DNA of 64,000 nucleotides from assembly GCF_011045215.1 (NCBI RefSeq), contig NZ_CP049201.1. The stretch is one strand, 5' to 3'. Numbering within the stretch: the stretch's first letter is position 1; each line of letters starts with the position of its first letter. Made by a program: the position numbers and the translations under genes. Below, piece by piece: positions 2 through 46,000 of the stretch. Under the pieces are notes generated by a model, which was not told the origin of the DNA, did no database searches, and worked only from the letters and a program-made list of their open reading frames with translations. The DNA comes from Escherichia coli. GTDB lineage: Bacteria; Pseudomonadota; Gammaproteobacteria; Enterobacterales; Enterobacteriaceae.

Positions 2-592
2 GGTAATCCTCCGGCATTTTCCCTGACATCAGACGGGAGACTGACGGCGAAAAATGCGGATATCAGTGGCAGTGTGAATGCGAACTCAGGAACGCTCAAC
101 AATGTCACGATTAACCAGAACTGTACGATTAAGGGCATGCTGGAGGCGACCCAGGTCAGAGGAGATTTCGTTAAAGCTGTATCAAAAGCCTTCCCGAAAA
201 AAGTCGGTACGTGGGGTAACACGGAAACACCAAACGGTACGGTTACAGTCACCATCAGCGATGATCATAACTTTGACCGCCAGATTATTATTCCGCCCAT
301 TATTTTTAACGGTATAGCGTATGACGATCCGGGGAGCGGAAATAACCCAGGAGGCACGCGATACACGGGTTATGGTTTTGAAGTTCGCAAAAACGGCGTA
401 TTAATCGCATCCAGAGAAACTAAAGGGGCCATTCCCGGTAGTTACAGTGCAGTTATTGATATGCCGAGTGGCAGGGGAAGCGTCACTCTGGAGTTTAAGA
501 TTTTCCAGAAAGGCAATCAGGGGGCAGGCAATATCACCGACTGTACGGTGATTGTGACCAAAAAAGCCGCTTCCGGCATCAGTATTCGTTGA
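2..592 (+). CDS. Phage tail tip / host specificity protein J, C-terminal part (5' end lies before the window)
   Basis: The reading frame is open from position 2 to the stop at 592. It is followed by lom, stf and tfa in the canonical lambda order J-lom-stf-tfa. Confidence 0.6.
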   Translation, partial: GNPPAFSLTSDGRLTAKNADISGSVNANSGTLNNVTINQNCTIKGMLEATQVRGDFVKAVSKAFPKKVGTWGNTETPNGTVTVTISDDHNFDRQIIIPPIIFNGIAYDDPGSGNNPGGTRYTGYGFEVRKNGVLIASRETKGAIPGSYSAVIDMPSGRGSVTLEFKIFQKGNQGAGNITDCTVIVTKKAASGISIR

Positions 593-662: not shown

Positions 663-1262
663 ATGCGTAAAGTTTGTGCAGCAATTTTGTCCGCAGCCAT
701 TTGTCTGGCCGTATCCGGTGCGCCTGCATGGGCGTCTGAACATCAGTCCACGCTGAGCGCGGGGTATCTTCATGCCTCGACGAACGTCCCCGGCAGTGAT
801 GATCTGAACGGGATTAACGTGAAATACCGTTATGAGTTTACGGACACACTGGGGCTGGTGACGTCATTCAGCTATGCAGGAGACAAGAATCGCCAGCTGA
901 CCCGTTACAGCGATACCCGCTGGCATGAAGATTCCGTTCGTAACCGCTGGTTCAGCGTAATGGCGGGGCCGTCTGTGCGCGTAAATGAATGGTTCAGCGC
1001 GTATGCGATGGCGGGTATGGCTTACAGCCGTGTGTCGACTTTCTCCGGGGATTATCTCCGCGTAACTGACAACAAGGGGAAAACGCACGACGTGCTGACC
1101 GGAAGTGATGACGGTCGCCACAGCAACACGTCTCTGGCGTGGGGAGCTGGCGTGCAGTTTAACCCGACCGAATCCGTGGCCATTGATATTGCTTATGAAG
1201 GCTCCGGCAGTGGCGACTGGCGCACTGACGGTTTCATCGTGGGTGTCGGTTATAAGTTCTGA
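663..1262 (+). CDS. lom: Lom-like outer membrane protein (Ail/Lom/OmpX beta-barrel family)
   Basis: 199 aa with a signal peptide (MRKVCAAILSAAICLAVSGAPAWA), alternating beta-strand pattern and C-terminal aromatic residue (GVGYKF). Position between J and stf matches lambda lom. Confidence 0.8.
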   Translation: MRKVCAAILSAAICLAVSGAPAWASEHQSTLSAGYLHASTNVPGSDDLNGINVKYRYEFTDTLGLVTSFSYAGDKNRQLTRYSDTRWHEDSVRNRWFSVMAGPSVRVNEWFSAYAMAGMAYSRVSTFSGDYLRVTDNKGKTHDVLTGSDDGRHSNTSLAWGAGVQFNPTESVAIDIAYEGSGSGDWRTDGFIVGVGYKF

Positions 1263-1316: not shown

Positions 1317-1326
1317 TGGGGTGAAT

Positions 1327-4300
1327 ATGGCAGTAAAGATTTCAGGTGTACTGAAAGACGGCACAGGAAAACCGGTACAGAACTGCACAATCCAGCTGAA
1401 AGCAAAACGTAACAGCACCGCGGTGGTGGTGAACACGCTGGCCTCAGAAAATCCGGATGAAGCCGGGCGTTACAGCATGGACGTTGAGTACGGTCAGTAC
1501 AGCGTTATTCTGTTGGTGGAAGGATTCCCGCCGTCACATGCCGGGACCATCACCGTGTATGAAGATTCCCGACCCGGTACGCTGAATGATTTTCTCGGTG
1601 CCATGACGGAGGATGATGCCCGTCCGGAGGCTCTGCGCCGTTTTGAACTGATGGTGGAAGAGGTGGCGCGTAACGCGTCCGCGGTGGCACAGAACACGGC
1701 AGCCGCGAAGAAGTCAGCCGGCGATGCCGGCACATCTGCCCGTGAGGCGGCAACCCATGCGACTGATGCTGCAGGCTCAGCACGCGCAGCCAGCACGTCA
1801 GCCGGACAGGCCGCTTCGTCGGCTCAGTCAGCGTCTTCCAGCGCAGGAACGGCATCAACAAAGGCCACTGAAGCATCAAAAAGTGCTGCCGCTGCAGAGT
1901 CCTCAAAAAGCGCGGCAGCTACCAGTGCCAGTGCCGCGAAAACGTCAGAAACGAATGCTGCAGCGTCACAACAATCAGCAGCCACTTCTGCATCCACCGC
2001 GACCACGAAAGCGTCAGAAGCTGCCACCTCAGCCCGGGATGCGTCGGCTTCAAAAGAGGCGGCAAAATCATCAGAAACGAACGCATCCTCGAGCGCCAGT
2101 AGCGCATCTTCCTCGGCAACAGCGGCAGGAAATTCCGCGAAGGCGGCAAAAACGTCAGAGACGAACGCCAGGTCTTCTGAAACGGCAGCGGGACAGAGCG
2201 CCTCGGCTGCGGCAGGCTCAAAAACAGCGGCTGCGTCGTCTGCCAGTGCAGCGTCAACAAGTGCCGGGCAGGCCTCAGCCAGTGCCACCGCCGCCGGAAA
2301 ATCGGCAGAAAGCGCCGCATCGTCTGCTTCAACAGCCACAACGAAGGCTGGCGAAGCCACTGAACAGGCCAGCGCAGCAGCGAGGTCTGCTTCCGCAGCG
2401 AAGACATCCGAAACGAACGCGAAAGCGTCGGAAACCAGCGCAGAATCCTCAAAAACGGCTGCCGCATCGTCAGCCAGTTCGGCGGCGTCATCGGCATCAT
2501 CGGCGTCTGCTTCAAAAGATGAGGCGACCAGACAAGCGTCAGCAGCGAAGAGCAGCGCCACGACGGCATCCACGAAGGCGACAGAGGCTGCTGGCAGTGC
2601 GACGGCGGCAGCTCAGAGCAAAAGTACGGCGGAATCCGCGGCAACGCGCGCCGAGACAGCAGCTAAACGGGCAGAGGATATTGCATCCGCCGTGGCGCTT
2701 GAGGATGCAAGTACGACGAAAAAGGGGATAGTACAGCTCAGCAGTGCGACCAACAGTACGTCTGAAACGCTGGCGGCAACGCCAAAGGCAGTAAAATCAG
2801 CCTATGACAATGCAGAGAAACGTCTGCAGAAAGACCAGAACGGCGCTGATATACCCGATAAGGGATGCTTCCTGAACAACATTAACGCGGTCAGTAAAAC
2901 AGACTTTGCTGATAAGCGTGGTATGCGTTATGTGCGGGTTAACGCTCCTGCAGGTGCAACATCTGGAAAATATTACCCTGTTGTTGTTATGCGTTCTGCT
3001 GGCTCAGTAAGCGAACTGGCATCAAGAGTCATTATCACCACGGCAACGCGAACCGCAGGCGATCCGATGAATAACTGCGAGTTTAACGGATTTGTTATGC
3101 CTGGTGGCTGGACTGACAGGGGGCGTTATGCTTATGGCATGTTCTGGCAATATCAAAACAATGAACGAGCCATTCACTCAATAATGATGAGTAATAAGGG
3201 CGATGATTTGCGCTCTGTGTTCTATGTTGATGGCGCTGCTTTCCCTGTTTTTGCGTTTATTGAAGATGGCCTGTCAATATCCGCACCTGGTGCTGATCTC
3301 GTTGTTAATGATACGACCTATAAGTTTGGGGCAACAAATCCGGCGACTGAATGTATCGCGGCGGACGTTATCCTTGATTTTAAGAGTGGGCGTGGTTTTT
3401 ATGAGTCTCATTCGTTAATCGTTAACGATAACTTGTCGTGCAAAAAACTTTTTGCCACAGACGAAATTGTAGCGCGTGGTGGTAATCAGATTCGAATGAT
3501 AGGTGGGGAGTATGGGGCATTATGGCGTAATGATGGCGCTAAAACTTACCTGCTGCTTACCAATCAAGGTGATGTTTATGGTGGCTGGAATACATTAAGA
3601 CCGTTTGCTATTGATAACGCAACCGGCGAACTGGTTATTGGAACCAAACTGTCCGCAAGTCTGAACGGTAATGCATTAACAGCAACAAAGCTGCAAACGC
3701 CAAGACGGGTTTCTGGTGTTGAGTTTGATGGTTCCAAAGATATTACTTTAACCGCCGCGCATGTGGCTGCTTTTGCCAGAAGGGCAACGGATACATATGC
3801 CGATGCGGATGGTGGCGTTCCCTGGAATGCCGAATCAGGCGCTTATAATGTCACCCGCTCTGGCGACAGCTATATTCTGGTTAACTTCTATACCGGAGTC
3901 GGAAGTTGCCGGACCCTGCAGATGAAGGCGCATTACAGAAATGGTGGTCTGTTCTACCGTTCTTCAAGAGACGGTTATGGTTTTGAGGAAGACTGGGCAG
4001 AAGTTTATACCTCGAAAAATCTTCCACCAGAAAGCTACCCAGTCGGCGCACCAATCCCGTGGCCATCAGATACCGTTCCGTCTGGTTATGCCCAGATGCA
4101 GGGGCAGACTTTTGACAAATCTGCCTACCCGAAACTTGCAGCCGCTTATCCGTCAGGCGTGATCCCTGATATGCGTGGCTGGACGATTAAGGGCAAGCCC
4201 GCCAGTGGTCGTGCCGTATTGTCTCAGGAACAGGACGGCATTAAATCGCATACCCACAGCGCCAGCGCATCCAGTACGGATTTGGGTACGAAAACCACAT

Positions 4301-4728
4301 CGTCGTTTGATTACGGAACCAAATCCACGAATAACACCGGGGCGCATACCCATAGTATTAGCGGGACTGCAAATAGTGCCGGTGCGCACCAACACAAGAG
4401 TTCCGGTGCATTTGGTGGCACGAACACGAGCATTTTTCCTAATGGTTATACTGCGATTTCAAATCCAAGCGCGGGGATTATGAGCACAACAAGCGGTACT
4501 GGCCAGACTCGTAATGCAGGGAAGACATCATCAGATGGTGCTCATACCCACTCACTGTCCGGCACTGCTGCAAGCGCAGGTGCACACGCACATACTGTCG
4601 GTATTGGTGCTCATACGCACTCCGTTGCGATTGGTTCACATGGACACACCATCACCGTTAACGCTGCTGGTAACGCGGAAAACACCGTCAAAAACATCGC
4701 ATTTAACTATATTGTGAGGCTTGCATAA
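1327..4728 (+). CDS. stf: Side tail fiber protein (Stf family)
   Basis: Long ORF whose N-terminus ([26 protein letters not shown]...) matches the prophage side-tail-fiber family. It has an Ala/Ser/Thr-rich repeat tract and C-terminal GAHTHS-type repeats. ATG at 1327 is preferred over the GTG at 1321 used by the ORF track. Confidence 0.85.
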
Positions 4729-5309
4729 TGGCATTCAGAATGAGTGAACAACCACGGACCATAAAAATTTATAATCTGCTGGCCGGAACTAATGAATTTA
4801 TTGGTGAAGGTGACGCATATATTCCACCTCATACAGGTCTGCCAGCAAACAGTACCGATATTGCACCGCCAGATATTCCGGCAGGCTTCGTGGCTGTTTT
4901 CAACAGTGATGAGGCATCGTGGCATCTTGTTGAAGACCATCGGGGTAAAACGGTTTATGACGTGGCTTCCGGCGACGCGTTATTTATTTCTGAACTCGGC
5001 TTATTACCGGAAAATGTCACCTGGTTATCCCCGGAAGGGGAGTTTCAGAAGTGGAACGGCACAGCCTGGGTGAAAGATGCAGAAGCAGAAAAACTGTTCC
5101 GGATCCGGGAGGCGGAAGAAACAAAAAACAACCTGATGCAGGTAGCCAGTGAGCATATTGCGCCACTTCAGGATGCTGTAGATCTGGAAATCGCAACGGA
5201 GGAAGAAAACTCGTTGCTGGAAGCCTGGAAGAAGTATCGGGTGTTGCTGAACCGTGTTGATACATCAACTGCACCTGATATTGAGTGGCCTGTAATACCA
5301 GAAGTTTAA
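4728..5309 (+). CDS. tfa: Tail fiber assembly protein (Tfa)
   Basis: 193 aa; its start overlaps the stf stop (TAATG). Sequence and position are typical of lambdoid Tfa chaperones. Confidence 0.8.
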
Positions 5310-5428: not shown

Positions 5429-6319
5429 TTAGTTTTTACTATTTATCTTTGTTTGTGGTTCTCCTTCAGCAAGCTCAGCGCCAGTGACAGGATTGATGTC
5501 TTCATGGGATTTCAACCTTGTTGCCATAGCTTTTATCATAGCTTCTTGCTTGGTCGAAAGATTTATCGAGGCCTTCCCATCCCCACCGTCAACCGCTGGA
5601 ACTGGATCGGAAATATAGTCAAAGTTTTCATCACTGTTCCAACTACCTCTGACGTCTTCACCTTCTGACATGTTGTAATATACGTTTTTGTATTTCTCAA
5701 TTGGTGGTAATTTTCCTGGTGGAAAGGTGTTGCGAATTGAATGTAATGCTTTTTCAAATGAAAGCATGTGTGCTGCTTCCCTGGTCATTAAAAATGCCAG
5801 AGTGTCTTTTACTCCAGGATCATCAGTAACATTAATGAGACGTTCGTAAATGATCTTTGCCCGAGCTTCAGCTGCAATATTTGAACGAAGATCGGCCGTG
5901 ACTTCGCCAATAGTATCAACATAAGCTGCAGTCCAGGGTACTCCAGCTGAATTAGTTAATGCTGGGCCTCCTCCGTAGAGGAGAGAAGTTATATGGCTGT
6001 CATTGCCATTTTGAGTTAAGGAACGGTAAAGCTCAGCTTCATTCTCAGTTCCTTCAGCAAGTGCTCCTTTTGCACCTTTGTTGAGCATACCAACAAGAGA
6101 ACCAATAATTTCGAGATGACTTAGTTCTTCTGTTGCTATGTCCATCAGCATATCCCTTCGGCCTGCATCTTCATCACTTAAGCCTTGAGTGAAGTATCGG
6201 CATGCTGCTGCAAGCTCACCCTGTGGCCCGCCGAATTGTTCTAAAAGTAGATTAGCCAAGCCTGGGTTTGGCTCACTTACACGTACTGTATATTGAAGTT
6301 TTTTCACGTGTCTAAACAT
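5429..6319 (-). CDS. katN: Manganese (non-haem) catalase, KatN-like
   Basis: 296-aa protein with ferritin-like di-metal catalase features, resembling Salmonella KatN. A GAGGAGG ribosome-binding site lies 6-12 nt upstream. It is the last gene of a co-directional four-gene cluster. Confidence 0.8.
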   Translation of the reverse strand: MFRHVKKLQYTVRVSEPNPGLANLLLEQFGGPQGELAAACRYFTQGLSDEDAGRRDMLMDIATEELSHLEIIGSLVGMLNKGAKGALAEGTENEAELYRSLTQNGNDSHITSLLYGGGPALTNSAGVPWTAAYVDTIGEVTADLRSNIAAEARAKIIYERLINVTDDPGVKDTLAFLMTREAAHMLSFEKALHSIRNTFPPGKLPPIEKYKNVYYNMSEGEDVRGSWNSDENFDYISDPVPAVDGGDGKASINLSTKQEAMIKAMATRLKSHEDINPVTGAELAEGEPQTKINSKN

Positions 6320-6337
6320 AATGCCTCCTCAAAAGAA

Positions 6338-6844
6338 TTATTTTTTGGCTTCAACTCCATCAATTTCAGATCTGACCATGAATTGCTCAGTGGTGTCAGG
6401 AATATGGTTAAGAAGCCATTCAGCCATTTGTTTTTCTTCATTAAGAATTGCTTCAATAATGGGTACTGAAGCTGTATCACCCGCATTTTTGGCTGCTGCG
6501 AGAAGAGATGTGTAGCACGCAATTTCAAATTGTTCGAAAACATAGCCACTGATCGAACCTTTGACAATTTCATCAGATGGAAAAATTCCACCAATGGATT
6601 GCCCAAACGCGGCCATTTTACTCATAGAGTCTTTAATGACAGAGCGCGAAATATTATTACGATCAAGTATGCTTTCAAGCTGTGAAAGCTGGTTCTTTGT
6701 TTCGCTAATGTGCTGCTCAATTCTGGAACGTAACTCTGGATAGTTTTCTATCCGGCTGGCCATAGACTCAAGCATTTTTTCAGCTTGTTTCTCCATCGCA
6801 TGTGCATCACGAAGCCAGTCATGGTAATGTTCAATTCTATTCAT
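6338..6844 (-). CDS. yciE: YciE-like ferritin-like (DUF892) stress protein
   Basis: 168 aa; resembles YciE; tightly linked upstream of the catalase gene. Confidence 0.75.
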   Translation of the reverse strand: MNRIEHYHDWLRDAHAMEKQAEKMLESMASRIENYPELRSRIEQHISETKNQLSQLESILDRNNISRSVIKDSMSKMAAFGQSIGGIFPSDEIVKGSISGYVFEQFEIACYTSLLAAAKNAGDTASVPIIEAILNEEKQMAEWLLNHIPDTTEQFMVRSEIDGVEAKK

Positions 6845-6880
6845 AATCTGTTTATCCTAAAAGAAATTGAAGTCTATAGT

Positions 6881-7387
6881 TCAGGAGTTATCCTGAGCTT
6901 TTTTATTAACGTTATTAAATGCCAGGTCTGTTAATTTGACATCAGTAGCTTTTTCCTCTTCCAGTGTTTCTTTCAGGAGTTTAGCCGCTTTTTTATATCC
7001 TAATTGCTCAGCGAGTGTTACCAAAGTGCCATAACTGGCAATTTCATAGTGCTCTACTTTTTGTGCTGCAGCAATCAATGCAGCATCACGTACTTCATTT
7101 TTATCAGTGCTTTCAATTACCTCATTCGCCTCTTCGATAAGTCCTTCCATTGCGGCACACTTAATTCTTTTCAATTTAAGACCATCTTCAGAATCAACAA
7201 TCTGATCGATGCGTTCAATTTGACCATGTGTCTCATCAAGATGTGACTGAAAAGCAGCGGTTAATTTATCACTATATGCAGAGCGACTAAGTTTAGACAG
7301 TGCCTTTGTTAGTTGTTTCTCAGCGCTGTATGTATCCGATAATAAGTGGATGAAGATATCTTCAACAGATTTAATTTGCATAATCAC
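6881..7387 (-). CDS. yciF: YciF-like ferritin-like (DUF892) stress protein
   Basis: 168 aa; YciF-like sequence; same orientation and operon context. Confidence 0.75.
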   Translation of the reverse strand: MIMQIKSVEDIFIHLLSDTYSAEKQLTKALSKLSRSAYSDKLTAAFQSHLDETHGQIERIDQIVDSEDGLKLKRIKCAAMEGLIEEANEVIESTDKNEVRDAALIAAAQKVEHYEIASYGTLVTLAEQLGYKKAAKLLKETLEEEKATDVKLTDLAFNNVNKKAQDNS

Positions 7388-7400
7388 TCCAGAGTTTTCA

Positions 7401-7422
7401 CTGCGAGCCCGTAGGCTCGCAG
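7401..7422 (-). other. Perfect 9-bp stem hairpin between the yciG-like and yciF-like genes
   Basis: CTGCGAGCC-CGTA-GGCTCGCAG. No clear U-tract follows, so it is more likely an RNA stabiliser or partial attenuator than a full terminator. Confidence 0.3.
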
Positions 7423-7459
7423 TTAGCTTCAGTTATTCACGAATGTAGGGGATGATAAA

Positions 7460-7642
7460 TTAAGAGTCAGATTTACGGCCGCCACCATGGCTATTCTGAC
7501 CACCTTTTTTCCCTGCTTCTGATGCTCTTTGTGGATCGTTTTTAAAATTACCGCCACTATGTTGGCCGCCTTTACGACCAGCGTCAGAAGCTTTTTGTCG
7601 ATCTTCAGCGAAATTACCTGCACCGCCACGATGTTCGGTCAT
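7460..7642 (-). CDS. yciG: YciG-like KGG-repeat general stress protein
   Basis: 60 aa with repeated KGG and GGNF motifs (MTEHRGGAGNFAEDRQKASDAGRKGGQHSGGNFKNDPQRASEAGKKGG...); first gene of the cluster. Confidence 0.7.
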   Translation of the reverse strand: MTEHRGGAGNFAEDRQKASDAGRKGGQHSGGNFKNDPQRASEAGKKGGQNSHGGGRKSDS

Positions 7643-8377: not shown

Positions 8378-9661
8378 ATGGATTTCCAGTTATATTCGCT
8401 CGGCGCAGCGTTGGTGTTTCATGAAATATTTTTTCCTGAATCATCAACGGCAATGGCGTTAATTCTGGCAATGGGAACCTACGGTGCAGGTTATGTCGCG
8501 CGTATTGTCGGAGCATTTATTTTCGGCAAAATGGGCGACAGAATAGGGCGTAAAAAAGTGCTCTTTATTACCATCACCATGATGGGGATCTGTACCACCT
8601 TAATTGGTGTGTTACCGACCTATGCACAGATTGGTGTTTTTGCACCCATCTTGCTGGTGACGCTGCGTATTATTCAGGGATTGGGTGCAGGTGCGGAAAT
8701 TTCCGGTGCCGGTACGATGCTGGCGGAATATGCGCCAAAAGGTAAGCGCGGAATTATCTCCTCATTTGTGGCTATGGGAACTAACTGCGGAACCTTAAGC
8801 GCAACGGCAATCTGGGCCTTTATGTTCTTCATTCTCAGTAAAGAGGAACTGCTGGCGTGGGGATGGCGTATACCGTTCCTGGCGAGCGTTGTCGTGATGG
8901 TCTTTGCTATCTGGTTGCGTATGAATCTGAAAGAAAGCCCGGTCTTTGAGAAGGTTAACGACAGCAACCAACCAACAGCAAAACCTGCACCTGCTGGTAG
9001 CATGTTCCAGAGCAAATCCTTCTGGCTGGCAACAGGGCTGCGTTTTGGTCAGGCAGGTAACTCCGGATTAATTCAGACTTTCCTTGCAGGCTATTTAGTG
9101 CAGACGTTATTGTTTAACAAAGCAATTCCAACAGATGCATTGATGATCAGTTCGATTCTCGGCTTTATGACCATTCCGTTCCTTGGTTGGTTATCCGATA
9201 AAATTGGTCGCCGGATCCCGTATATTATTATGAATACCTCCGCGATTGTGCTGGCATGGCCAATGCTTTCTATCATCGTAGATAAAAGCTATGCCCCGAG
9301 CACCATTATGGTTGCACTGATTGTGATTCATAACAGTGCGGTGCTGGGATTATTTGCTCTGGAAAATATTACCATGGCAGAAATGTTTGGTTGTAAAAAC
9401 CGCTTTACCCGGATGGCTATTTCAAAAGAAATTGGTGGTCTTATCGCTTCCGGTTTTGGTCCTATCCTGGCAGGTATTTTCTGCACCATGACGGAATCCT
9501 GGTATCCGATCGCCATTATGATCATGGCATATTCAGTGATTGGTTTAATCTCTGCGCTGAAAATGCCAGAAGTGAAAGACCGTGATTTAAGTGCGCTGGA
9601 AGACGCTGCGGAAGATCAACCGCGTGTTGTAAGAGCTGCGCAACCTTCCAGAAGTCTGTAA
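8378..9661 (+). CDS. ydfJ: MFS transporter YdfJ (apparently N-terminally truncated)
   Basis: 427 aa with an MFS signature (GKMGDRIGRKK loop). The first transmembrane region expected in this family appears to be missing, consistent with a gene interrupted at a prophage junction. Confidence 0.85.
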   Translation: MDFQLYSLGAALVFHEIFFPESSTAMALILAMGTYGAGYVARIVGAFIFGKMGDRIGRKKVLFITITMMGICTTLIGVLPTYAQIGVFAPILLVTLRIIQGLGAGAEISGAGTMLAEYAPKGKRGIISSFVAMGTNCGTLSATAIWAFMFFILSKEELLAWGWRIPFLASVVVMVFAIWLRMNLKESPVFEKVNDSNQPTAKPAPAGSMFQSKSFWLATGLRFGQAGNSGLIQTFLAGYLVQTLLFNKAIPTDALMISSILGFMTIPFLGWLSDKIGRRIPYIIMNTSAIVLAWPMLSIIVDKSYAPSTIMVALIVIHNSAVLGLFALENITMAEMFGCKNRFTRMAISKEIGGLIASGFGPILAGIFCTMTESWYPIAIMIMAYSVIGLISALKMPEVKDRDLSALEDAAEDQPRVVRAAQPSRSL

Positions 9662-43068: not shown

Positions 43069-46000
43069 ATGAATAGAATCTATCGCGTGATATGGAATTG
43101 CACTCTACAGGTATTTCAGGCCTGCTCTGAATTAACTCGCAGGGTAGGTAAAACATCAACGGTTAATTTGCGTAAATCCTCTGGACTGACAACGAAATTC
43201 AGTAGATTGACGCTGGGTGTTTTGCTGGCACTAAGCGGTTCAGTGTCTGGTGCGAGTCTGGAAGTTGATAATGGTCAGATTACCAATATTGATACTGATG
43301 TTGCTTATGATGCCTACCTGGTTGGCTGGTATGGCACTGGAGTGCTTAATATTTTGGCTGGCGGTAATGCCGCCTTAACCACTATTACTACCAGCGTCAT
43401 TGGCGGTAATGAGGATTCGGAGGGTACCGTTAATGTTTTGGGTGGCACCTGGCGATTGTATGATAGCGGAAATAATGCAAGGCCTTTAAATGTGGGTCAA
43501 TCCGGAACGGGGACGCTGAATATTAAACAGAAGGGTCACGTCGATGGAGGCTATTTAAGATTAGGTACACAAGCTGCAGGCGTCGGGACGGTTAATGTTG
43601 AGGGAGAGGACTCGGTTTTGACGACCGAATTATTCGAAATAGGTAGCTATGGCACAGGTTCATTAAATATTACGGATAAGGGTTACGTCACGAGTTCAAT
43701 CGTCGCCATTTTAGGCTATCAGGCGGGCAGTAATGGCCAGGTTGTCGTTGAAAAGGGTGGCGAGTGGCTAATAAAAAATAATGATTCCTCAATTGAATTT
43801 CAAATTGGTAATCAAGGAACTGGGGAGGCGACTATTCGCGAGGGGGGGCTGGTTACGGCTGAAAATACGATTATCGGTGGCAATGCCACCGGTATCGGAA
43901 CCCTGAATGTGCAGGATCAAGACTCTGTCATCACGGTACGCAGACTCTATAATGGATATTTCGGTAATGGCACAGTCAATATTTTCAATAATGGACTGAT
44001 TAATAACAAAGAATATTCATTGGTGGGCGTTCAGGACGGTTCCCACGGTGTCGTCAACGTGACCGATAAAGGGCATTGGAATTTCCTCGGAACGGGCGAA
44101 GCTTTCCGCTATATCTATATCGGTGATGCTGGCGACGGTGAACTTAATGTCTCGAGTGAAGGCAAAGTAGATTCGGGAATTATCACTGCGGGGATGAAAG
44201 AAACAGGCACAGGCAACATTACTGTTAAGGATAAGAACTCCGTTATCACTAATCTCGGAACTAATCTTGGTTATGACGGCCACGGCGAAATGAATATCAG
44301 TAATCAGGGGCTTGTTGTCAGCAACGGAGGAAGTTCACTCGGTTATGGAGAAACCGGCGTCGGGAATGTCAGCATCACCACGGGGGGAATGTGGGAGGTC
44401 AATAAGAATGTCTATACCACCATTGGTGTTGCGGGCGTCGGAAACCTCAATATTAGCGATGGCGGTAAGTTCGTATCGCAAAATATTACTTTTTTGGGTG
44501 ATAAAGCAAGCGGTATCGGCACATTGAACCTGATGGATGCGACATCATCGTTCGATACTGTGGGTATCAATGTCGGTAATTTTGGTAGCGGCATCGTAAA
44601 TGTCAGTAATGGCGCCACCCTTAATTCAACGGGCTATGGATTTATCGGAGGAAATGCCTCCGGTAAGGGAATAGTTAATATTTCAACGGATAGTCTCTGG
44701 AATTTAAAGACGTCTTCTACTAACGCCCAATTGCTACAAGTCGGTGTATTAGGCACGGGTGAACTGAATATTACCACCGGAGGTATAGTTAAAGCGCGTG
44801 ATACACAGATAGCTCTCAATGACAAAAGTAAGGGCGACGTGAGGGTGGATGGGCAGAACTCTCTTCTTGAAACATTCAATATGTACGTAGGGACATCTGG
44901 TACGGGTACGTTAACCCTGACGAATAGCGGCACGCTGAATGTCGAAGGTGGAGAAGTTTACTTAGGTGTTTTTGAACCTGCTGTAGGAACGCTAAACATT
45001 GGTGCAGCTCACGGTGAGGCGGCGGCAGATGCCGGATTTATCACCAACGCGACGAAAGTAGAGTTTGGCTCTGGCGAAGGTGTTTTTGTCTTTAATCATA
45101 CCAATAACAGTGATGCCGGCTACCAGGTCGATATGCTGATTACAGGTGACGATAAAGACGGAAAAGTGATCCATGATGCAGGCCATACGGTGTTCAATGC
45201 AGGGAATACTTATAGCGGTAAAACGCTGGTCAATGACGGCCTCCTGACCATTGCGTCTCATACGGCAGATGGGGTAACGGGCATGGGGTCGAGTGAAGTA
45301 ACCATTGCAAACCCCGGTACGCTCGACATTCTCGCATCAACGAACAGTGCAGGAGATTACACGCTGACCAATGCGCTCAAAGGCGATGGCTTGATGCGAG
45401 TGCAGCTGTCATCCTCCGACAAGATGTTTGGCTTTACCCATGCAACAGGGACTGAATTCGCCGGTGTTGCCCAATTTAAAGACAGTACCTTCACTTTGGA
45501 ACGCGACAACACCGCAGCGCTTACTCACGCGATGTTGCAGTCTGACAGTGAAAATACCACATCGGTAAAAGTTGGAGAGCAATCCATTGGTGGACTGGCC
45601 ATGAATGGAGGTACCCTCATTTTCGATACGGATATTCCTGCTGCGACGCTCGCGGAGGGATATATCAGCGTCGATACGCTGGTTGTCGGCGCGGGTGACT
45701 ACACCTGGAAAGGCCGTAACTATCAGGTAAACGGGACGGGCGACGTGCTTATCGACGTGCCTAAACCGTGGAATGATCCCATGGCGAATAACCCTCTGAC
45801 GACGCTCAATTTGCTGGAACACGATGATAGCCATGTCGGCGTTCAACTGGTGAAGGCGCAAACGGTTATTGGGTCGGGTGGCTCATTAACGTTACGTGAT
45901 TTACAGGGCGACGAGGTGGAAGCGGACAAAACGTTACACATTGCGCAAAACGGAACGGTGGTCGCCGAGGGTGATTATGGATTCCGCCTCACGACCGCAC

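Follow-up and report, generated by a model that had tools for sequence, protein, structure and literature searches.

The side tail fibre gene (stf) near the start of a 64,000-nt stretch of Escherichia coli DNA (contig NZ_CP049201.1; hereafter the window) encodes a protein with recurring histidine motifs close to its C-terminus. What these histidines do, and which part of the fibre tip would recognise the host, are the questions that this locus raises. The initial annotation had proposed that regularly spaced GAHxH-type motifs between positions 4230 and 4680 coordinate metal or form a receptor-binding knob. We consider, with a probability of roughly 0.9, that the His pairs are metal-binding layers of a tail-fibre tip of the T4 gp37/lambda Stf type, a reading that rests on homology to a tip of known structure.

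The motifs lie in the stf gene of a lambdoid prophage

All features described here are on the + strand. In the list of open reading frames, stf occupies 1321..4728 and encodes 1135 amino acids from a GTG at 1321 (translation of 1321–4725); its true start is likely the ATG at 1327, judging by how RefSeq annotates a 99%-identical locus, where the product is named ‘prophage tail fiber N-terminal domain-containing protein’. Stf matches the Pfam N-terminal domain PF08400 (E = 3.2e-71), as well as PF21446 (Gp34_trimer) and PF07484 (Collar). Upstream are the 3′ end of gene J (74..592; central tail fibre, C-terminal receptor-binding domain; PF12421, E = 1e-26), with a full gpJ annotated at the equivalent position of the 99%-identical locus, and lom (663..1262; Ail/Lom outer-membrane protein; PF06316, E = 5e-122). 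Downstream, the stf stop codon is overlapped by the start of tfa (4728..5309; tail fibre assembly chaperone; PF02413, E = 3e-44), the product of which shares 94% identity with lambda Tfa and 35% with the N-terminal part of T4 gp38 (E = 3e-17).

The gene order J, lom, stf, tfa matches that of lambda and of a RefSeq prophage. Both this order and the PF08400 domain, which together define a lambdoid Stf, are present here and are shared with Stf of Ur-lambda (orf401 plus orf314 in lambda PaPa) and its accompanying Tfa. The stf gene is intact here, whereas that of laboratory lambda is frameshifted. The host element is an ordinary E. coli lambdoid prophage.

Stf contains seven His-x-His motifs maintained at the protein level

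Seven HxH motifs are present in Stf, starting at residues 977, 1009, 1023, 1075, 1089, 1098 and 1107 (nt 4249–4647). Motif 1, KSHTHS (H977/H979; 4249..4257), is the sole one without a Gly. The remaining six have the form GxHxH: motif 2, GAHTHS (H1009/H1011; 4345..4353; GAHTH from residue 1007, nt 4339–4353); motif 3, GAHQHK (H1023/H1025; 4387..4395; GAHQH from residue 1021, nt 4381–4395); motif 4, GAHTHS (H1075/H1077; 4543..4551; GAHTH from residue 1073, nt 4537–4551); motif 5, GAHAHT (H1089/H1091; 4585..4593; GAHAH from residue 1087, nt 4579–4593); motif 6, GAHTHS (H1098/H1100; 4612..4620; GAHTH from residue 1096, nt 4606–4620); and motif 7, GSHGHT (H1107/H1109; 4639..4647; GSHGH from residue 1105, nt 4633–4647). 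All of the motifs named in the initial annotation were thus found in the translation of 4230–4680, but its list of five was not complete and did not quite follow their order in the sequence.

Stf has 20 His residues, 14 of which fall within the last 190 residues, all in HxH pairs, and these same 14 are the only His in the last 232 residues. In composition-preserving shuffles (n = 5000), HxH motifs averaged 0.34 in the whole protein, with no shuffle above 3, and 0.80 in its last 232 amino acids, with no shuffle above 5. Seven motifs were reached in 0/5000 shuffles in either case, which rules out chance or low complexity as the origin of the motifs.

The start-to-start spacings are 32, 14, 52, 14, 9 and 9 residues, with the 32-residue gap covering TDLGTK/FDYGTK units and the 52-residue gap covering the distal head. 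Across 126 tip sequences (see below), the 9-residue step occurred 295 times and the 14-residue step 123 times, with other values seen only 6 times. The regular spacing originally proposed therefore holds for the 9- and 14-residue steps, which are periodic across the family, but is broken by the gaps of 32 and 52. At the DNA level, the motifs share near-repeats of at most 18 nt and no tandem array was detected in the motif DNA by TRF. The repeat is therefore preserved in the protein, and an origin of this copy by recent duplication or slippage of the DNA was rejected.

The motif-bearing region is homologous to the T4 gp37 tip

A phmmer search of the PDB with a query beginning at Stf residue 701 matched chain 2xgf_A, the tip of T4 gp37 (E = 4.1e-82). 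Stf residues 904–1135 (aligned query part 204–435; 4030..4725) matched chain positions 27–242, a region that spans the collar, needle and head of the receptor-binding tip. In a MAFFT alignment these residues share 71% identity with T4 gp37 and 78% with lambda Stf, and 14/14 tip His are unchanged among the three proteins. A comparison with known tail-fibre tips had been proposed in the initial annotation; in the alignment to 2XGF, the seven Stf pairs align one-to-one, in order, with T4 883/885, 915/917, 929/931, 966/968, 980/982, 989/991 and 998/1000.

The phage tail collar domain (residues 909–956; 4045..4188; PF07484, E = 1.6e-11, 44.4 bits against a cut-off of 24) lies directly N-terminal to the needle, as in gp37-type tips. 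The conserved C-terminal tail (4654..4725; 81–97% column identity in the 126 tip sequences) is mostly the same in T4 and lambda, apart from three residues of the NAAGNA stretch at which T4 deviates. The Pfam Phage_fiber repeat PF03335 scored below threshold in Stf (18.9 bits against a cut-off of 20), in a single stretch at residues 1004–1017. A precomputed PF03335 label is present on close relatives.

Like Stf, the T4 gp37 tip (PDB 2XGF, residues 785–1026) has seven HxH motifs, three ascending and four descending, with spacings of 32, 14, head, 14, 9 and 9; it also has the matching C-terminal stretch, and a homologous chaperone gene lies immediately downstream. By this alignment, Stf motifs 1 and 2 would lie on the ascending strand, motif 3 would close the ascending series at the head's base, and motif 4 would open the descending series. 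The heads differ in sequence, with 34 residues between motifs 3 and 4 in T4 and 49 in Stf. Outside the tip, Stf is a lambdoid Stf and not a T-even gp37 shaft, and the particle context also differs, Stf being a siphovirus side fibre and gp37 a myovirus long tail fibre.

HxH sites are also found in the T4 gp12 short fibre, the P2 gpV and Mu gp45 spikes and R-pyocin fibres, which share a common principle: three chains each contribute an HxH to an octahedral metal site located on their three-fold axis. Each of these proteins carries a single site or a few, in an unrelated fold, and Stf does not belong to their families. No gp12 chain was found in the PDB sequence search, and the sole short-fibre match (9cuy, E = 5e-10) spans query positions 200–279, the collar region. 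A Foldseek search with the predicted Stf monomer showed no T4 gp12-type fold beyond the collar and the HxH motifs themselves (1ocy, E = 0.04, TM-score 0.24; 5lye, 56 aligned columns).

Structure prediction of Stf residues 904–1135 was of low confidence. An AlphaFold2 monomer model from a 23-sequence alignment had an overall pLDDT of 62; the collar alone was confident (80–89), and the needle reached 45–65, as expected of an obligate interdigitated trimer modelled as a monomer. A pseudo-trimer (three copies in one chain with 20-residue Gly/Ser linkers between them, 8-row alignment) gave a mean pLDDT of 38 and an unusable model. The top Foldseek hit of the low-confidence monomer in the PDB was 2xgf_A (E = 7e-18) at a TM-score of only 0.27; the match thus reflects sequence and local 3Di similarity and adds nothing beyond the sequence match.

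Conserved His pairs flank a hypervariable head

The Stf tip matched 1834 cluster representatives, and conservation was assessed in 126 tip sequences, i.e. the query and 125 representatives of 50%-identity clusters. Motifs 1, 6 and 7 were 100% conserved and motifs 2 and 5 were 99% conserved, so that 10/14 His are conserved in at least 99% of sequences. Poor conservation of the His residues, which the initial annotation had named as evidence that would count against it, was therefore not what we observed. Motifs 3 and 4, which flank the distal head, were conserved in 48% and 70% of sequences, respectively, and motif 3 is missing from relatives with shorter needles. Some layers are thus dispensable within this family.

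Between motifs 3 and 4 lies a His-free segment (residues 1026–1074; 4396..4542) with low column identity. Identity is 9–15% at residues 1024–1063, compared with 66–97% in the flanking blocks 904–1013 and 1084–1135. This segment corresponds to the specificity segment 932–965 of T4 gp37 and is the putative receptor-contact part of Stf, for which such variability is expected; receptor specificity likely resides here. T4 gp37 recognises OmpC and LPS (PMC6957217), and lambda Stf, which resembles the gp37 tip in both sequence and structure, binds OmpC (PMC12617516). Since the Stf head differs in sequence from that of lambda, OmpC specificity should not be assumed for the prophage fibre. Placing the likely specificity determinant at residues ∼1026–1074 is useful for host-range prediction, and the conserved, His-bearing flanks offer natural splice points for engineering chimeric Stf fibres.

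The His pairs probably form metal-binding layers of a needle

In the 2XGF structure paper, Bartual et al. (2010) reportedly described His pairs that face the three-fold axis, with the irons buried on the needle axis. The motifs were reportedly termed His boxes by Tetart et al. (1996/1998); neither ‘GXHXH’ nor ‘His box’ was found as a term for them in the literature that we searched. Seven coordinated iron atoms, held by paired His, are arranged along the T4 gp37 needle, and for H929/H931, the only motif described at the level of single residues, either H929A or H931A abolishes plaque formation (PMC6957217). The coordination sphere of the T4 irons is octahedral, and the HxH motifs are conserved in lambda (PMC11705849). 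The HxH iron motifs of gp37 and lambda Stf tips are already known biology.

By homology, three Stf chains would intertwine, with folding aided by the adjacent Tfa chaperone. Each chain is predicted to run up the needle (motifs 1–3), form the distal head (residues ∼1026–1074) and return down the needle (motifs 4–7). At each HxH level, every chain would contribute two His, and the resulting six imidazoles would hold one metal ion, octahedrally coordinated on the three-fold axis. The metal would be iron, as in T4, with seven ions per fibre stapling a thin, six-stranded needle. The His residues would thereby be clustered in space, as judged from the homologous crystal structure, and would act in structure, folding and stability, leaving specificity to the His-free head. 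The trimer, its hairpin topology, which ions it holds and how many, and the binding of a receptor by Stf are all features transferred from homologues. The metal coordination first proposed for the motifs thus gains its support through homology, i.e. 71% identity to 2XGF with all seven pairs matching T4 pairs. The proposed receptor-binding knob does not fit the His residues, which map to the needle shaft, while the knob corresponds to the hypervariable segment. The motifs mark the C-terminus of the prophage stf as a probable iron-stabilised, receptor-binding tip of the gp37/Stf type, which matters little beyond correct annotation.

Several other explanations of the motifs were weighed. With the same architecture, the ions could be Zn2+, Ni2+ or Co2+ in place of iron, since sequence cannot tell metals apart. 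The His site of the T4 short tail fibre gp12 binds Zn2+, the short-fibre structures 1ocy and 5lye are weak fold matches to Stf, and the HxH sites of P2 and Mu spike proteins and pyocin fibres are likewise described as metal sites. However, the 71% identity to 2XGF and the same aligned His geometry make iron the default, and another metal is unlikely. That the His pairs contact the receptor directly, as the binding surface of a knob, is suggested by their position within the last 160 residues, near the distal tip, but residues that stay constant while the heads change from fibre to fibre cannot be the source of specificity, and the equivalent of T4 932–965, which is the sole hypervariable part, has no His. 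We regard such contact as extremely improbable.

The motifs might also serve mainly as short homology patches for recombination and head swapping, with a secondary role in the protein. A hypervariable head bracketed by highly conserved, motif-bearing flanks would suit such exchange, the same tip occurs in lambdoid prophages, P2-like phages and T4-like phages, the g37/g38 end of T4 was reportedly acquired from a lambda-like phage, and the number of units varies among relatives. Yet the DNA repeats between motifs are no longer than 18 nt, conservation is at the amino-acid level (at least 99% for the His), and the lethality of H929A and H931A in T4 argues that these residues are required in the protein itself (PMC6957217). 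Recombination is best viewed as something that the conserved flanks allow, and it does not explain why the His residues are there; as their main role we find it highly improbable. Conservation also counts against the idea of a ‘Ferrojan horse’, in which fibre-bound iron is bait for host siderophore or iron-uptake receptors: the His residues stay invariant where host specificity changes, and the determinants of specificity map to the head, which has no His. The T4 irons, moreover, are reportedly buried on the needle axis. This idea has been discussed for HxH tail fibres, including those of lambda and T4 (PMC11705849), but T4 gp37 is known to use OmpC and LPS as receptors, and lambda Stf to use OmpC (PMC6957217, PMC12617516), and we give it a very slim chance. 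Metal-binding layers in the needle shaft remain our preferred explanation of the His pairs.

Needle units vary in pairs among relatives

The number of HxH units in relatives ranges from 4 to 10. An extra ascending 10-residue unit of the FDYGTK type was paired with one extra descending 9-residue HxH unit in 119/126 sequences (Spearman 0.84), and such paired counts are predicted by an up-and-back, antiparallel needle. In comparison with the seven motifs here, lambda Stf has eight, with one more 9-residue GAHQHPVVI unit, and it also has one more FDYGTK unit; by the family rule, the lambda needle would be one layer longer. A tentative, and on balance doubtful, joint reading is that the 9-, 10- and 14-residue units act as a modular ruler, by which needle length and iron content (4–10 layers) could evolve to suit how deep the surface layer of the host is, and that the 49-residue head allele binds a receptor other than the OmpC and LPS used by T4 and lambda. 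If true, neither part would alter the general view of the tip as one of the gp37 type, stapled by iron.

The nearest phage-borne copies of this tip allele are in the lambdoid Escherichia phages ev099 and mEp332, which show no substantive difference in the tip. In amino-acid sequence, their head alleles share 96–98% identity with that of Stf; in nucleotide sequence, the tip shares 97% identity with ev099.

A cluster of seven His-x-His pairs at the Stf tip

The locus forms one end of a lambdoid prophage, with the gene order J-lom-stf-tfa. The side tail fibre gene stf (1135 aa; window 1321-4728, + strand) encodes PF08400, the N-terminal domain of prophage tail fibres (E = 3e-71), together with Gp34_trimer-like and phage tail collar domains. 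Gene J, of which the 3' end is present (74-592; PF12421), and lom (663-1262; PF06316) precede stf, and its stop overlaps the start of the tail fibre assembly gene tfa (4728-5309; PF02413). A 99%-identical locus with the same annotation adjoins a truncated ydfJ in E. coli strain 100181, and a 1.5-kb stf-tfa segment has matches in 5240 of 5426 complete E. coli genomes.

Within stf, the His motifs are confined to the last 160 codons. The initial annotation had listed five regularly spaced GAHxH-type motifs; these are real, but seven HxH pairs are present, at residues 977, 1009, 1023, 1075, 1089, 1098 and 1107 (nt 4249-4647). All but the first, KSHTHS, follow the pattern GxHxH. Successive motifs are 32, 14, 52, 14, 9 and 9 residues apart, so that spacing is regular within each of two halves but not across the whole set. 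All 14 His in the C-terminal 190 residues fall inside these pairs, and the remaining 945 residues contain only six. The repetition is genuine, since none of 5000 shuffles reached seven HxH (at most 3 over the full protein length, and 5 within the last 232 residues).

The Stf tip is homologous to the T4 gp37 tip

The Stf His motifs are textbook phage biology. Homology between Stf and gp37 has been known since the 1980s-1990s, and the iron-binding HxH needle reportedly dates from 2010. [quoted passage not shown] The tip shares 71% identity with T4 gp37 (from J02509) and 78% with lambda Stf (from OM418626), and all 14 tip His are invariant in the alignment of the three proteins. In T4 gp37, the seven pairs correspond to H883/885, 915/917, 929/931, 966/968, 980/982, 989/991 and 998/1000. 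Tfa shares 94% identity with its lambda counterpart and 35% with the N-terminal part of T4 gp38.

The T4 irons are bound by paired His (HxH) with a described octahedral coordination sphere, and the HxH motif is conserved in lambda (PMC11705849). In the gp37 needle, three chains intertwine into a six-stranded antiparallel structure, and the head at its end carries a specificity region at residues 932-965 (PMC9659904). Along its length, the needle holds seven coordinated iron atoms, and plaque formation by T4 is abolished by H929A and H931A (PMC6957217). Ur-lambda Stf, which has this type of tip, binds OmpC (PMC12617516). Metal coordination, as initially suggested, is thus supported by homology: the Stf pairs align with the HxH pairs of gp37, and every tip His is retained.

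Structure prediction, the check initially proposed, was run and gave no usable needle model. The AF2 monomer of the tip had a mean pLDDT of 62 (collar 80-89; needle and head 45-65), and a three-copy linker-joined construct reached 38. The best PDB match of the monomer was again 2xgf_A (E = 7e-18, 66% identity), with a TM of only 0.27. Low-confidence models are usual when a trimer is obligate and interdigitated and requires metal and a chaperone as well. Therefore, spatial clustering of the Stf His is inferred from homology to the crystal structure.

A matching rule for ascending and descending units

When 1.84 billion cluster representatives were scanned without a profile, 1834 relatives were found at E < 1e-3, 263 of them below 1e-30. 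Conservation was assessed among the matches listed, using 126 sequences (the query and 125 whole-tip matches). In this sample, motifs 1, 2, 5, 6 and 7 were 99-100% conserved, while motifs 3 and 4, on either side of the head, were 48% and 70% conserved. Column identity was only 9-15% at residues 1024-1063, and a C-terminal 12-residue stretch was 97% conserved.

Relatives among these listed matches carry 4 to 10 HxH motifs. Successive motifs within the needle were 9 residues apart in 295 cases, 14 in 123 and another distance in only 6. Splitting the motifs at the head gave ascending/descending counts of 3/4 in 47 of the 126 sequences (including Stf here and T4), 2/3 in 37, 2/4 in 21 and 3/5 in 9. 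Motifs 1 and 2 were 32, 42, 52 or 62 residues apart when descending minus ascending motifs equalled 1, 2, 3 or 4, respectively. This rule was true in 119 of the 126 sequences (Spearman 0.84, uncorrected for phylogeny). Therefore, there is one extra descending HxH unit per extra ascending FDYGTK-type unit, which is exactly the prediction of an up-and-back antiparallel needle. At the sequence level, this matching is independent support for the 2XGF topology in the Stf/gp37 tip family.

One 938-aa protein from the scan (P0121) has ten HxH motifs and two separate tip matches, and scores above near-identical matches (611 bits). This suggests partial duplication of the needle or tip.

Proposed role of the His pairs

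We propose that three Stf chains, with the help of Tfa, would fold into a collar-needle-head tip. Each of seven levels would hold one axial ion (iron in T4), bound by six His side chains of which each chain supplies two, and this binding would stabilise a very thin beta-structure. Receptor contact would be made by the His-free head (about residues 1026-1074). Lambdoid phages ev099 and mEp332 carry a head allele 96-98% identical to that of Stf, and the heads of some T4-like phages are about 55% identical; by analogy only, the receptor may be OmpC or LPS.

A metal other than iron in the HxH layers is unlikely, though sequence alone does not discriminate. It is highly improbable that the His pairs touch the receptor directly, and just as improbable that iron serves as bait (the 'Ferrojan horse'); the variable head is His-free, which conflicts with both. 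The irons of the T4 gp37 tip are reportedly buried on the axis, which speaks likewise against these two readings. Both also conflict with the known receptors OmpC and LPS (PMC6957217, PMC12617516). The conserved flanks could plausibly serve as recombination sites as a by-product. However, recombination cannot account for the His pairs, since substituting H929 or H931 is lethal in T4 (PMC6957217) and DNA-level repeats are very short (near-repeats between the motifs of 18 nt at most; no tandem array over the motifs by TRF).

Other features of the fibre and window

Directly upstream of the collar, Stf residues 815-909 (window 3763-4047) match the phage Mu tail fibre S/S' structure 8JU3 (E = 3e-21), and residues 709-779 match T4 gp34 and Mu gpS domains. 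The fibre is therefore a mosaic of modules that also occur in myovirus fibres. Residues about 120-480 (window about 1680-2760) form a long Ala/Ser/Thr-rich low-complexity shaft stretch with recurring KTSETNA- and SAAKSSE-like strings. Long spurious ORFs overlap this stretch in other frames, and TRF found no DNA tandem repeat in it.

A four-gene stress cluster (window 5429-7642, - strand) encodes a Mn catalase (PF05067), two DUF892/ferritin-like proteins and a KGG/con-10 general stress protein, and resembles yciG-yciF-yciE-katN. The cluster is flanked by tfa and by an ORF (8378-9661), the counterpart of which is recorded in the 99%-identical locus as ydfJ truncated at its N terminus. The cluster is therefore at the prophage-chromosome junction and may be prophage cargo. 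Elsewhere, window 43069-48489 (+ strand) encodes an intact type V autotransporter of 1806 aa with an ESPR signal, a PATR repeat, pertactin/autochaperone domains and a beta-barrel.
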